Source: Octopus sinensis
Lineage: Eukaryota
Direction: 5' to 3'
Length of the DNA: 64,000 nucleotides
NCBI RefSeq assembly: GCF_006345805.1
Contig: NC_043000.1
Coordinates: 163,432,001 to 163,496,000 of the forward strand
Each line of letters opens with the position of its first letter. Position 1 is the first letter of the stretch. Positions 16,182 to 47,757 of this stretch are shown one piece after another. The position numbers were made by a program, and so were the translations under genes. The notes under the pieces were generated by a model. That model did no database searches and was not told the DNA's origin. It was given only the letters and a program-made list of their open reading frames with translations.

Positions 16182-16389
16182 TGACCGCGTGTGTACCGTT
16201 GGCGGTTTTTTTCCCCCTCTGTCTTCCCTTCTCTGGATCTTTCTTTTTCCTATGTTTCTGACGAAGAGCTCCGCTCGAAACGTTAAACCCTCCTTCTTTC
16301 CTTCCTTCCTGAGCGTCCAATAATACTATATTTGTTCCACGTCCTCGAGTTGTTGTGTTTTCTCTTTATGTTTTCATGTTTGGAATAAC
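16182..16389 (+). mobile_element. ~200-bp hammerhead-bearing element, copy 3 (intact core)
   Basis: Homologous to copies 1, 2, 4 and 5; between (TA)n tracts. Confidence 0.9.
16254..16288 (+). ncRNA. Minimal type I hammerhead ribozyme motif
   Basis: gttt CTGACGA a gagc-tcc-gctc GAAA cg TT aaac: stem I gttt/aaac, stem II gagc/gctc, palindromic loopless stem III (AACGTT), GUU triplet. Confidence 0.8.
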
Positions 16390-21313: not shown

Positions 21314-21518
21314 CTCTTACTCTTTACTCTTTACTCTTTTACTTGTTTCAGTCATTTGACTGTGGCCATGCTGGAGCACCGCCTTTAGTTGAGAAAATCG
21401 ACCCCAGGACTTATTCTATGTAAGGACTTATTCTCTTTTGCCGAACCGCTAAGTTACGAGGACGTAAATACACCAGCATTGGTTGTCAAGCGATGTTGGG
21501 GGGACAAACACAGACACA

Positions 21519-21554
<36 letters not shown>

Positions 21555-21792
21555 ATATATATATATATTCTCTTTACTTTTTAACTCTTTTACTTGTTTC
21601 AGTCATTTGACTGTGGCCATGCTGGAGGCACCGCCTTTAGTTGAGAAAATCGACCCCAGGACTTATTCTATGTAAGGACTTATTCTCTTTTGCCGAACCG
21701 CTAAGTTACGAGGACGTAAATACACCAGCATTGGTTGTCAAGCGATGTTGGGGGGCACACAAACACAGACACACACAACACACACACACACA

Positions 21793-21830
<38 letters not shown>
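21314..21830 (-). mobile_element. Two near-identical tandem 3' halves of SINE family B (252-bp period)
   Basis: ORF offsets 21389/21641; units separated by (CA)n(TA)n. Confidence 0.9.
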
Positions 21831-21832
<2 letters not shown>

Positions 21833-22067
21833 CTCTTTACTTTTTAACTCTTTTACTTGTTTCAGTCATTTGACTGTAACCATGCTGGAGCACCGCCTTT
21901 AGTCAAGCAAATCGACCCCGGGACTTATTCTTTGTAAGCCCAGTACTTATTCTATCGGTCTCTTTGGAGACCGGTAAGTAACGGGGACGTAAACACACCA
22001 GCATCGGTTGTCAAGCAATGCTAGGGGGAAGACACAGACACACAAACACGTACACACGCACATATAT

Positions 22068-22110
<43 letters not shown>

Positions 22111-26364: not shown

Positions 26365-26584
26365 TGTAAATGTAATATGTGACAATTATTCGGTAGCCAT
26401 GATAAAACTCCGAGTTTCGGATGCCGAGGTGGAAATCCACGCCGCCATCTCTTCAGTTATCCGGCATCGGAAAAAATGCCTCTGATGGCCGGATAACTGA
26501 AGAGATGGCGGCGTGGTTTTCCACCCCGACATCCGAAACTCGGAGTTTTATCATGGCTACCGAATAATTGTCACATATTACATT

Positions 26585-39618: not shown

Positions 39619-39688
39619 ATTTCAGGATGGTCATTTTATACGCACACACGCACACGCGCGCGCACAAAAACATACACATGCATACATA

Positions 39689-39724
<36 letters not shown>

Positions 39725-39731
39725 CACATAT

Positions 39732-40080
39732 AAACACAAAATGGGACAAGAACGCAAAACACCCAAACAGACGACACAAAAACACGGACGGGTCACTCGA
39801 AGCCTCCAATCCCCAGTCAAGAACCGGACCATCCTAGCAACCCCAGCCGACCAATCCCGAGACCGCTCCGATCCGGCCAGCCCCAAGGAAAAACTAAGCC
39901 ACGAGCACCAGATCTCCTGGGAAAAGGATCGAATGCACACGAAACAAGGACAAAAAAAAAACGGACGATGCCACACGAACATAAATACAATAAACAATAT
40001 AATACGAATATAAACACAAAAAACAACAACAACAATAATAACAGGACGAAACAACAGGCGTCTCTCGCACACACTGACAC
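39732..40080 (-). mobile_element. Microsatellite-embedded repeat with strong A depletion and G excess on the minus strand (candidate hyperedited retrocopy)
   Basis: Only 17 T in 229 nt of the plus strand (39732-39960) and no TT; 12 of the 17 T are followed by C. Confidence 0.6.
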
Positions 40081-40110
40081 GTACGTACATACATAATACA
40101 TACATACATA

Positions 40111-40225
40111 AAACATATCCTGTTGAAGTTGTTGAGATTCCAGTGAAGGAACCTTGGATCTGGGTTAAAAACCGGCTCTTTCTCTATTGGCAAGAAACCT
40201 TGAAATAAAACTGACCAATGACGTA
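40111..40225 (+). mobile_element. Short 3'-UTR fragment of an R4/Dong-like element next to (TACA)n
   Basis: ggaaccttggatctgggttaaaaaccggctc parallels ggagccttgcatctttgttggaaaccggctc in the 3' UTR of the 5372-5841 element. Confidence 0.45.
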
Positions 40226-40380
40226 TACACGCATGTATAATTGTTCCGTGCGATATACATTTCGTCTTTGCAAAGTTCCGCATTCCTACCCTTGTAGCAA
40301 ATAGAGAAATCTAAATATTCATAATGAATTGATGTTGTTGTTGTTATTATTGTTATCATCATAGTTATGATTATTTATTA

Positions 40381-44820: not shown

Positions 44821-45798
44821 ACTTGTCATTTACTTCAACAAGTCCTTTCTACTGCTCACTGGTGATTTCATTTTATATTGCTAGAATATACTTTATAGCT
44901 ATTTGAAAGGAATGAGGGAAATGGTTAATTGTTATACTTGGGTAGGGTCATCTTTTGCAAATAAAACACACGCACTGTGTATTTGATCTTCACTTCAGTT
45001 TTATTGGTGTTAATAAAGGCGGTGAGCTGGCAGAATCGTTAAGCCGCCGGGTGATATGCTTAGCGGCATTTGGTCCGTCTTTACGTTCTGAGTTCAAGTT
45101 CCGCCGAGGTCAACTTTGCCTTTAATCCTTTCGGGGTCGATGAAATAAGTAGCAATTACGCACTGGGGGTCGATGAAATTTATTATCTCCCTCCCCTAAA
45201 TCTCAGGCCTTGTGCATATAGTAGAAAGGATTATTATTATTATTATTATTATTTACTTCATTTGTCCCCCAAAGTTCTTTCGTCACACATTCTGTGACCT
45301 CTTCAGTAACTTTCTCTCCCATGTGTCTGATTAGAATTATTTTGTCTTCAAAACCCGATGATATCGACTGTTCCGAGAGTCGATAATTCAAGTAAACGCT
45401 CGAATTAATCGGTTGTTTTTGTTTTGTTTTTTTTCATCGAAAATATGTGTTACTGTGTTACTGCTAACAGCTTTCATTGTTCAGCGATCGTTGACAAAAT
45501 TATCAGTTATCAGTGATATCAGACTAATATCACAGGCAATATCACCGTCGATACTAGAGACGAGTTACAGCAGAATACTTGTATGGAGACAGCTTTGCAA
45601 GGAGACATGGTCGACGGTTTCGCTGACGTCATCAACAGTCTATGTAATAGCGACGCCTTTGAATGTTGAGAAAAGCATATTAAAATTTGCTAAATGATTC
45701 CAGCTGGTTACTTTTTAATTTACTGTAATGCGAAATCTAATGCATTCAAGGAACACAAAACTATGAAGATTTCTCTCTTTCTCTTTTTCTTTCTCCTT

Positions 45799-45836
<38 letters not shown>

Positions 45837-45984
45837 TTTCTACCTCTCATTTCATGTATATATTATACGTGTGTGCGCGTGTGTGTATGCGTGCGTGTGT
45901 ATGTATATATGAAGATATTTAGTGAGATAGAGAGATAGATCAATAGATAGGCAGACAGACAGACAGACAGCAGACAGAAGGACT

Positions 45985-46062
<78 letters not shown>

Positions 46063-46158
46063 GGATAGATAGATAGATAGACACATGCACATTTACATAT
46101 ACAAAAGCCTATTTTCATACTCATTAGTAAATATGTGCTTCTGTGTGAGGGTTGTGTA

Positions 46159-46197
<39 letters not shown>

Positions 46198-47375
46198 TTG
46201 TGTGCCCCCCCCCCGACATCGCTTGACAACTGATGCTGGTGTGTTTACATTCCCGTAACTTAGCGGTTCGGCAAAATAGACCGATAGAATAAGTACTAGG
46301 CTTACAAACAATAAGTCCTGGGGGTCGACTAAAGGCGGCGCTCCAGCATGGCCATAGTCAAATGACTGAAACAAGTAAAAGACTAAAAGAATAACTTGTC
46401 ATTTACTTCAACAAGTCCTTTCTACTGCTCACTGGTGATTTCATTTTATATTGCTAGAATATACTTTATAGCTATTTGAAAGGAATGAGGGAAATGGTTA
46501 ATTGTTATACTTGGGTAGGGTCATCTTTTGCAAATAAAACACACGCACTGTGTATTTGATCTTCACTTCAGTTTTATTGGTGTTAATAAAGGCGGTGAGC
46601 TGGCAGAATCGTTAAGCCGCCGGGTGATATGCTTAGCGGCATTTGGTCCGTCTTTACGTTCTGAGTTCAAGTTCCGCCGAGGTCAACTTTGCCTTTAATC
46701 CTTTCGGGGTCGATGAAATAAGTAGCAATTACGCACTGGGGGTCGATGAAATTTATTATCTCCCTCCCCTAAATCTCAGGCCTTGTGCATATAGTAGAAA
46801 GGATTATTATTATTATTATTATTATTTACTTCATTTGTCCCCCAAAGTTCTTTCGTCACACATTCTGTGACCTCTTCAGTAACTTTCTCTCCCATGTGTC
46901 TGATTAGAATTATTTTGTCTTCAAAACCCGATGATATCGACTGTTCCGAGAGTCGATAATTCAAGTAAACGCTCGAATTAATCGGTTGTTTTTGTTTTGT
47001 TTTTTTTTTTCATCGAAAATATGTGTTACTGTGTTACTGCTAACAGCTTTCATTGTTCAGCGATCGTTGACAAAATTATCAGTTATCAGTGATATCAGAC
47101 TAATATCACAGGCAATATCACCGTCGATACTAGAGACGAGTTACAGCAGAATACTTGTATGGAGACAGCTTTGCAAGGAGACATGGTCGACGGTTTCGCT
47201 GACGTCATCAACAGTCTATGTAATAGCGACGCCTTTGAATGTTGAGAAAAGCATATTAAAATTTGCTAAATGATTCCAGCTGGTTACTTTTTAATTTACT
47301 GTAATGCGAAATCTAATGCATTCAAGGAACACAAAACTATGAAGATTTCTCTCTTTCTCTTTTTCTTTCTCCCTT

Positions 47376-47413
<38 letters not shown>

Positions 47414-47561
47414 TTTCTACCTCTCATTTCATGTATATATTATACGTGTGTGCGCGTGTGTGTATGCGTGCGTGTGTATGTATATATGAAGATATTTAGT
47501 GAGATAGAGAGATAGATCAATAGATAGGCAGACAGACAGACAGACAGCAGACAGAAGGACT

Positions 47562-47636
<75 letters not shown>

Positions 47637-47757
47637 GGATAGATAGATAGATAGACACATGCACATTTACATATACAAAAGCCTATTTTCATACTCATTA
47701 GTAAATATGTGCTTCTGTGTGAGGGTTGTGTATGTGCGTGTGTGTGTGTGTGTGTGT
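44591..47757. repeat. Tandem duplication, ~1.57-kb unit, breakpoints in (TG)n tracts
   Basis: Identical ORFs at 45070/46643 and 45203/46776 (offset 1573); the differences seen are only homopolymer or microsatellite length changes. Confidence 0.95.

Follow-up and report, generated by a model that had tools for sequence, protein, structure and literature searches.

Why is one short stretch of octopus DNA so poor in T on one strand? Within the window (the whole 64-kb stretch of Octopus sinensis DNA analyzed here), positions 39732–39960 hold 17 T in 229 nt, 12 of them with C as the next nucleotide, and form the T-poorest 229-nt segment of all. A gap without TT dinucleotides runs from 39637 to 40123; at 487 nt it is the longest in the window, the runner-up being 285 nt. 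The original prediction held that a retroelement RNA, hyperedited from A to I, left this stretch as a heritable cDNA, and its T counts and missing TT were exact on recount.

A truncated copy of a Penelope-like repeat

Comparison with natural copies by BLAST, along with the family ends and tandem arrangements, identified the following features at the focal locus.

39703..40067, minus strand (putative RNA strand): 5'-truncated copy, retaining the 3' ~365 nt, of a non-autonomous, Penelope-like repeat that is non-coding
39703..39724, no strand: (TA)n microsatellite, the fixed end of the element and its likely integration target, from the sequence, the same context in other copies and the known (TA)n preference
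39725..40064, minus strand: tract of 33–38 A>G changes (T>C on the plus strand), from copy comparison

The anomaly had been placed at 39732–40080. The anomaly itself held up, whereas its boundaries did not: homology to other copies covers 39703–40067, and changes begin at 39725.

The family is large, with at least 3,479 exact matches in the genome to a T/C-degenerate 24-mer; a first-look search had given 3,551 candidates, of which 40 were scored. The full repeat unit is ~740–830 nt in length and has no ORF. Copies are fixed at one end, which lies at (TA)n, and variable at the other through 5' truncation. Partial tandems occur at L059, L061, L042, and L082, and adjoining inverted copies at L043 and L113; (TA)n microsatellite flanks were seen by inspection, uncounted, at several copies. 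Penelope-like elements are described as having 5' truncations, partial tandems, adjoining inverted copies, and (TA)n targets (PMC8557442).

Non-autonomous Penelope-like elements and animal non-LTR retrozymes share with the octopus repeat these same features and the lack of an ORF (PMC8557442, PMC7229834, bioRxiv 10.64898/2026.07.22.740005). Retrozymes, however, have a tandem unit of 150–450 bp and a type I hammerhead, whereas the octopus unit is 740–830 nt and has no type I motif (same sources). Assignment as an animal non-LTR retrozyme was rejected on these grounds, the unit in L082 being 777 nt and the type I motif being absent.

The same genome contains an intact element with an 811-aa ORF that matches RVT_1. 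Its DKG and C-terminal GIY-YIG-like motifs, identified by eye, mark what we take to be a Penelope-like element. This element undergoes 5' truncation, its fixed end being the 3' terminus of the ORF strand, and it shares with the repeat a T-rich terminus followed by TATATA. The fixed end of the repeat is the minus-strand 3' end in the focal copy, from which we infer that the minus strand is the transposing RNA. This polarity is by analogy, since no sequence is shared between the repeat and the autonomous Penelope-like family (6 loci, one family). Under this polarity, the change would be A>G on the RNA strand. An autonomous partner of the repeat was not found in the one autonomous family compared. 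Loci L141–L146 (L144, 1502–4850) encode a candidate source of reverse transcriptase in trans, which has no sequence in common with the repeat.

Repeated segments of other kinds also occur in the window. A segment at 45772–46081 is duplicated at 47348–47655, with a spacing of ~1.57 kb, and 21320–22091 comprises three tandem copies of a 252-bp unit.

One type of substitution dominates the focal copy

Compared with 29 other copies, the focal copy has T>C changes at 35 of 67 T columns, no C>T, two A>G, two G>A, and eight transversions. The same 29 copies have 0–4 T>C changes each in 27 cases, the other two being L008 (18) and L017 (24). Against the five nearest unedited relatives, the focal copy has T>C at 38 of 69 sites, no C>T, and ~9 other changes. 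At five of the 38 sites, T and C distinguish subfamilies, which puts the number of de novo T>C changes at 33–38 (of 64–69 T sites). The unedited background, drawn from 80 units, has comparable rates of T>C (135/4954) and C>T (145/4986), along with A>G at 139/11226; the binomial probability of at least 33 T>C changes in 64 sites at the background rate is 2e-34. Thus, mismatches are dominated by T>C, as had been predicted. The focal copy is the most extreme of the edited copies, its changes span its full length, and about half of its minus-strand adenines have become guanine.

The family itself is not T-poor at the changed sites. The T-poverty that first drew attention is of two parts: an excess of T>C, which is a true anomaly, and a large share that is simply the composition of the family, whose plus strand is A-rich. 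The possibility that the family itself is C-rich at these sites was rejected, there being no multiply changed copy among the first 100 of 3,479 matches, a subfamily site excepted. Thirty-three units taken from the first 30 of those loci without selection have 0–6 T>C changes each. Retention of CpG by an ancestral focal copy in a decayed family was likewise rejected, as just 4 of the 38 changes lie in a CpG-forming context.

The changes are present in genomic DNA

A read-archive search with 39732–40130 listed 24 runs, with no RNA dataset among them; five contain 0.29–0.66 of 41 sampled words. These five come from four studies and carry two organism labels, which may denote sister species or synonyms. 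Four runs were used for the DNA check, which covered the focal locus alone, one per study, with one possibly being the source of the assembly itself; the material was assembled short-read contigs rather than raw reads. Contig pieces with zero mismatches to the focal sequence were found in all four: X1 (39740–39806 and 39887–39960), X2 (39783–39888 and 39887–39951), X3 (39740–39812), and X4 (39738–39815). The pieces have depths of 13–53 and span 5, 7, 16, 7, 7, and 8 changed sites. A further X4 contig (39786–39888) has two differences from the focal sequence.

A sequencing or assembly artefact is hardly credible in light of these data. The locus does lie among microsatellites, and for the focal locus in these four runs no contig covers the whole edited stretch or the right junction; contig coverage is nil at 40017–40111, where repeats were skipped, and at 40245–40300. 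One run, as noted, may be from the assembly's own sample. Nevertheless, the zero-mismatch pieces come from four studies and two organism labels, and the change tracks element orientation rather than chromosome strand (see below). The Cs are present in short-read contigs of all four studies, and the stretch is therefore not an assembly error. Confirmation in genomic reads, which the original prediction had called for, was thus obtained in short-read contigs of four studies, as opposed to raw reads. We conclude that the focal changes are inherited and in DNA.

One X3 contig, with a depth of 54, matches the edited sequence but lacks 43 nt (window 39849–39893); it represents either a deletion allele or another edited copy.

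T>C-rich copies recur and arose independently

The family was searched with a pattern that has C at both T positions of the palindrome GATTAATC, yielding 11 matches at 10 loci, of which 8 are hyperedited. The mirror pattern, with G at both A positions of GATTAATC, had no matches; contexts were matched between the two. A second pair of patterns gave the same picture, with 19 matches at 15 loci (13 hyperedited) for double T>C and none for the mirror A>G. Double T>C matches lie on both chromosome strands (4+7 and 7+12 for the two patterns), and as the mirror patterns have none, the change tracks the orientation of the element and not the chromosome strand.

From 115 distinct units we picked 21 T>C-rich loci, which belong to four subfamily backgrounds. 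L099/L101 (4/63), L105 (5/57), and L119 (5/52) were left out as not hyperedited, and L035 (5/65) was retained as borderline. Pooled over the 21 loci, changes number 329/1133 for T>C, 28/1201 for C>T, 33/2580 for A>G, and 43/1109 for G>A, with 95 transversions; the pooled T>C rate is not an estimate, since the loci were selected for T>C. DNA editing by APOBEC was rejected as the source, with plus-strand C>T being 0 in the focal copy and 28/1201 in the pool. The double change occurs in 11 of the 3,479 family matches, and from this figure and the 21 loci found, hyperedited copies make up roughly 0.3–1% of the family. The restriction role for ADAR that the original prediction also raised is hypothetical.

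The loci are independent events on separate lineages, as judged from sites outside the edits. In the young subfamily, L061 matches its sister L068 at non-edit sites, L056 matches L070/L071, and L042 matches L082/L084, and each has its own set of A>G changes. A 42-nt deletion is common to L042 and L108, whose edits differ, and a third unit bearing it, in L113, is unedited. Over all 210 pairs of loci, the Jaccard index of edit patterns has a median of 0.36 and a maximum of 0.67, with no two of the 21 being identical, and 223 of the 325 pairs of sites do not pass the four-gamete test.

These observations bear on the alternative that one old C-rich variant spread through descent, recombination, or gene conversion, such that the loci are not independent. 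Edited sites do overlap strongly among loci, the family is reticulate, with homoplasy, and five subfamily-level Cs are present in all five edited A-group copies. Against this, no two of the 21 loci have the same pattern, most site pairs are incompatible with a tree, and the edited young-subfamily copies match different unedited sisters at their remaining sites. A source for the first cluster would still be required as well. This alternative is largely refuted, and we consider it very improbable.

No family-wide excess of T>C was found on the internal branches of a 76-unit tree (T>C 18–21, C>T 14–15, A>G 18–21). Two adjacent branches leading to 34–35 units carry five changes, all of them T>C, an observation made post hoc in a reticulate family. 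The T>C changes at 39775, 39864, 39874, 39971, and 39972 define a subfamily, and this large subfamily may descend from a lightly edited RNA.

Other elements were surveyed as well. Across 347 kb of genomic DNA, of which 101 kb had at least five partners, clusters of one mismatch type outside the family were limited to mismatches in microsatellites, a cluster of C>T in L094, and a cluster of A>G in L002. The latter is in the terminal part of L002 (1743–1889), an otherwise unremarkable copy, where 9 of 10 mismatches are A>G, and may reflect subfamily differences or light editing. No such clusters were found in 25 loci of the autonomous Penelope-like family, which were chosen as best protein matches and are hence biased against mutated copies.

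Neighbor preference and a shared hot spot

ADAR disfavors adenosines with a 5' G, and such avoidance had been proposed for the focal copy with the caveat that a change in the second T of a TT itself creates TC. We scored neighbors in their pre-change state, which removes this inflation. By 5' neighbor on the minus strand, edited sites in the focal copy number 17/27 for U, 13/15 for A, 4/8 for C, and 4/18 for G; U is not the top 5' context. The avoidance of 5' G persists under this scoring (4/18 vs. 34/50 for the others, p=0.0018). By 3' neighbor, the numbers are 18/36 for U, 11/15 for A, which is the highest, 2/5 for C, and 7/12 for G. A site-level effect of 5' G was also evident across the 21 loci (core, p=0.003), and it is weaker without the five search sites (core, p=0.021; whole span, p=0.083). 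Changes are frequent at two sites with a 5' G, 39829 (12/18) and 39835 (8/18). In metazoan hyper-editing, upstream G is depleted in all species, and downstream A is enriched in invertebrates (PMC5625713). The genome has 17 matches over cut-off to PF02137, the ADAR-family deaminase domain, a count in which ADAR, ADAT, and ADAD are not separated.

Independent copies are edited within a common region of the repeat.

39796..39874, minus strand: editing hot spot common to independent copies; an imperfect palindrome centered on GATTAATC (39849–39856, family state), from the site table, young-subfamily alignment, and folds

Of the 138 A that six young loci have inside positions 600–680 of the unit, 61 are changed, with 2–3 sites per locus in this interval having been search sites, vs. 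3 of 415 outside. The same 80-nt interval has therefore been hit recurrently in separate young-subfamily lineages.

The hot spot is the sole strongly pairing part of a pyrimidine-rich unit. An imperfect palindrome and rod folds were predicted, as hairpin or dimer, at the level of shuffled sequences. No stable hairpin or self-duplex over the hot spot exceeded shuffles (z of –0.4 to +1.4 for cores and –1.9 to +0.8 for windows), and the RNAalifold covariation term of –0.65 indicates almost no covariation. The description of the element as hairpin-forming is thus unsupported, the edited region folding at shuffle level, and a long stable hairpin as ADAR substrate was not found in hairpin, dimer, or alignment folds. 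The duplex required by ADAR may have been a dimer, an imperfect rod of great length, or a pairing with antisense RNA, and this is the weakest link in the interpretation.

Units of one insertion share their edits

We compared edits between units lying within the same insertion. The Jaccard index is 1.0 for L061 (13/13 sites), 1.0 for L113 (10/10), and 0.89 for L042 (three pairs, 8 shared), and the inverted arms L037/L043 have an index of 0.93. Shared edits are thus seen in all three tandem arrays examined and in one inverted pair. Identical edits in tandem units fit with one RNA molecule having been copied more than once; local duplication afterwards may also account for them.

L113 (1366–3030) consists of two equally edited tandem units and an inverted unedited unit from another sub-lineage, suggestive of two templates. 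As this inverted arm is unedited and from another sub-lineage, some inverted arms would come from a second template.

The shared edits, along with the hot spot, weigh against two alternatives in which the changes arise without RNA editing. ADAR can act on DNA in RNA:DNA hybrids, and a deaminase may have acted on DNA at integration, either ADAR on the DNA strand of such a hybrid or an adenine deaminase on single-stranded DNA. The same A>G changes would be expected from this route, with the same avoidance of 5' G being possible, and it would account for the missing prediction of a strong RNA duplex. If the RNA is the minus strand, however, its first-strand cDNA is the plus strand, on which A>G is absent. 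Editing of DNA would also be expected to act on each unit independently, whereas tandem units carry identical edits, and a uniform hybrid leaves the 80-nt interval unexplained. We regard DNA deamination as improbable.

dNTP pool imbalance causes hypermutagenesis by retroviral reverse transcriptases, and the second alternative invokes misincorporation of this sort (dC opposite rA, or dG opposite rU should the RNA be the plus strand) or an error-prone DNA polymerase acting at WA sites. The heavy change in TT runs (5' A, 13/15 in the focal copy) would suit it, and the strand polarity is itself by analogy. Independent insertions are nevertheless changed in the same 80-nt interval, with 412 of the 415 A outside it spared, and edits are common to tandem units. 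The ends of the element indicate the minus strand as RNA, and the 25 autonomous Penelope-like loci, a sample biased by its choice of best protein matches, have no cluster. Misincorporation is quite improbable on these grounds.

The most probable explanation is that ADAR-edited RNA of the Penelope-like repeat was reverse transcribed into the germline, as argued from the substitution spectrum, neighbor preference, and shared edits. By this route, ADAR would deaminate adenosines in the RNA of the non-autonomous element, and inosine would be read as G during reverse transcription. A Penelope-like reverse transcriptase acting in trans would copy the edited RNA, and the cDNA would be integrated in the germline at a (TA)n run. 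If a single RNA molecule were copied repeatedly, tandem units with identical edits would result. The original prediction of a heritable cDNA from a hyperedited retroelement RNA came through on all three points set in advance as able to overturn it (T-poverty of the family itself, the type of mismatch, and the state of genomic reads), and the phenomenon recurs at 21 loci.

Hammerhead-like boxes in the edited region

The edited region overlaps three short motifs on the minus strand that resemble elements of hammerhead ribozymes.

39810..39816, minus strand: hammerhead-like box, CUGAAGA in the family and CUGAUGA in its young subfamily; CUGGGGA in the focal copy, with edited sites at 39812 and 39813, from sequence and alignment
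39841..39844, minus strand: GAAA box of the family; GGGG in the focal copy, from sequence and alignment
39861..39863, minus strand: candidate AUC cleavage triplet of the family (predicted); GUC in the focal copy, from alignment

The order of boxes on the minus strand is AUC, GAAA, and CUGAnGA, where n is A or U depending on subfamily. This is the order of rare SGC, non-circularly permuted hammerheads (PMC10085705). With stems I and III drawn in SGC order, pairing across 25 unedited copies was 100% and 94.7% for the two helices. In the drawn structure as a whole, 96.8% of 375 cells pair, and a single compensatory change is seen in each of 3 among the 15 pairs; these pairing figures are biased, as the structure was drawn from the same sequences. 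The repeat resembles type-SGC hammerheads in box order, in stems I and III being 95–100% paired, and in the short linker between the stem I and stem II strands (PMC10085705). It differs in that stem II begins 5 nt past CUGAnGA, outside the range of 1–2 nt (PMC10085705), covariation is thin, and there is no Rfam match. A search of Rfam gave no hammerhead match to the repeat, only microsatellite-driven miRNA-family noise below gathering, and the type I hammerhead motif is absent from the repeat unit.

As to the proposal that editing may have destroyed a ribozyme, the boxes are present on the minus strand and destroyed in the focal copy, but a ribozyme is at most a candidate. Given the Rfam result and stem II spacing, we do not file the repeat as a hammerhead. 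If it is one, both of its boxes are gone in the focal copy (GGGG and CUGGGGA).

Motifs of similar type occur elsewhere in the window. Compact CUGACGA...GAAAC motifs of the minimal hammerhead type, belonging to another repeat family, are located at 16258–16292 (plus) and 6001–5970 (minus), with no Rfam match at gathering. At 26406–26547, near-identical CUGAAGA...GAAAC motifs on opposite strands lie face to face as an inverted pair.

Discussion

Several known systems resemble parts of what is described here. The closest is in cultured human cells, where 3 of 235 pseudogene insertions made by induced L1 had clustered T>C changes, which were limited to inverted Alus and attributed to ADAR (PMC11702581). 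These share with the octopus copies clustered T>C in retro-inserted DNA, restriction to one RNA region, and a similar rarity (PMC11702581). The L1-made pseudogenes are somatic and experimental and derive from host mRNAs with inverted Alus (PMC11702581). In contrast, the octopus copies are inherited and recurrent, involve the element's own RNA, occur in an invertebrate and in a Penelope-like element, and have no obvious long duplex.

Fixed hypermutated copies are also known from LTR retroelements edited by APOBEC, which like the octopus copies are strand-biased and were detected by family comparison (PMC4866542). These have sense-strand G>A changes resulting from deamination of C in the cDNA, whereas the octopus repeat has A>G on the putative sense strand and is not an LTR element (PMC4866542). 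A screen of LTR elements in 123 genomes reported G>A editing only, with none in 19 invertebrates and negligible clusters of other mismatches (Knisbacher and Levanon, PMC4866542). Hyper-editing of repeat RNAs from A to I is seen across metazoans and is extreme in octopus (PMC5625713). It resembles the present case in its dense A>G clusters, depletion of upstream G, and preference for downstream A in invertebrates, and differs in being found in RNA against an unedited genome, whereas the cluster in the octopus repeat is in the genome (PMC5625713).

Other precedents are more distant. ADAR1 is reported to restrict L1 independently of its editing activity, no edits having been detected in the RNA of L1, and RNA editing was raised merely as a possibility for the heterogeneity of mussel retrozymes. 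In A-to-G hypermutated retroviral proviruses, ADAR-type edits in the RNA genome are carried into DNA by reverse transcription. Those proviruses derive from exogenous viruses in infected cells, whereas the octopus repeat is inherited and endogenous. In a literature coverage from which subscription journals were mostly absent, we came across no account of ADAR-type copies, both inherited and recurrent, made from the RNA of a mobile element itself.

The observations may be joined in a broader reading, which we offer tentatively and consider doubtful as a whole. ADAR would be a heritable, site-directed mutator that edits a hammerhead-like SGC-order module in transposing RNA. Most edited copies would be dead ends, their core boxes destroyed, while a lightly edited RNA would have founded a large subfamily (34–35 sampled copies with five changes, T>C only). 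The edits would serve as single-molecule barcodes, and tandem pseudo-LTRs would arise from one RNA, possibly circular, that was copied repeatedly.

The route described here would lead from RNA editing to an inherited DNA change; it was earlier seen in cultured cells, where it arose as a somatic by-product. Among copies fixed in genomes, the literature examined offers only G>A editing by APOBEC, in vertebrates. If each RNA has a unique edit pattern, shared edits mark units from one molecule, and unshared edits, as in the inverted arm of L113, mark a second template. Formation of tandem and inverted ends in Penelope-like elements would thereby become testable from sequence alone. The edited copies would also preserve, much as fossils do, the past activity of ADAR in the germline and its site preference in a group of animals that edits heavily.
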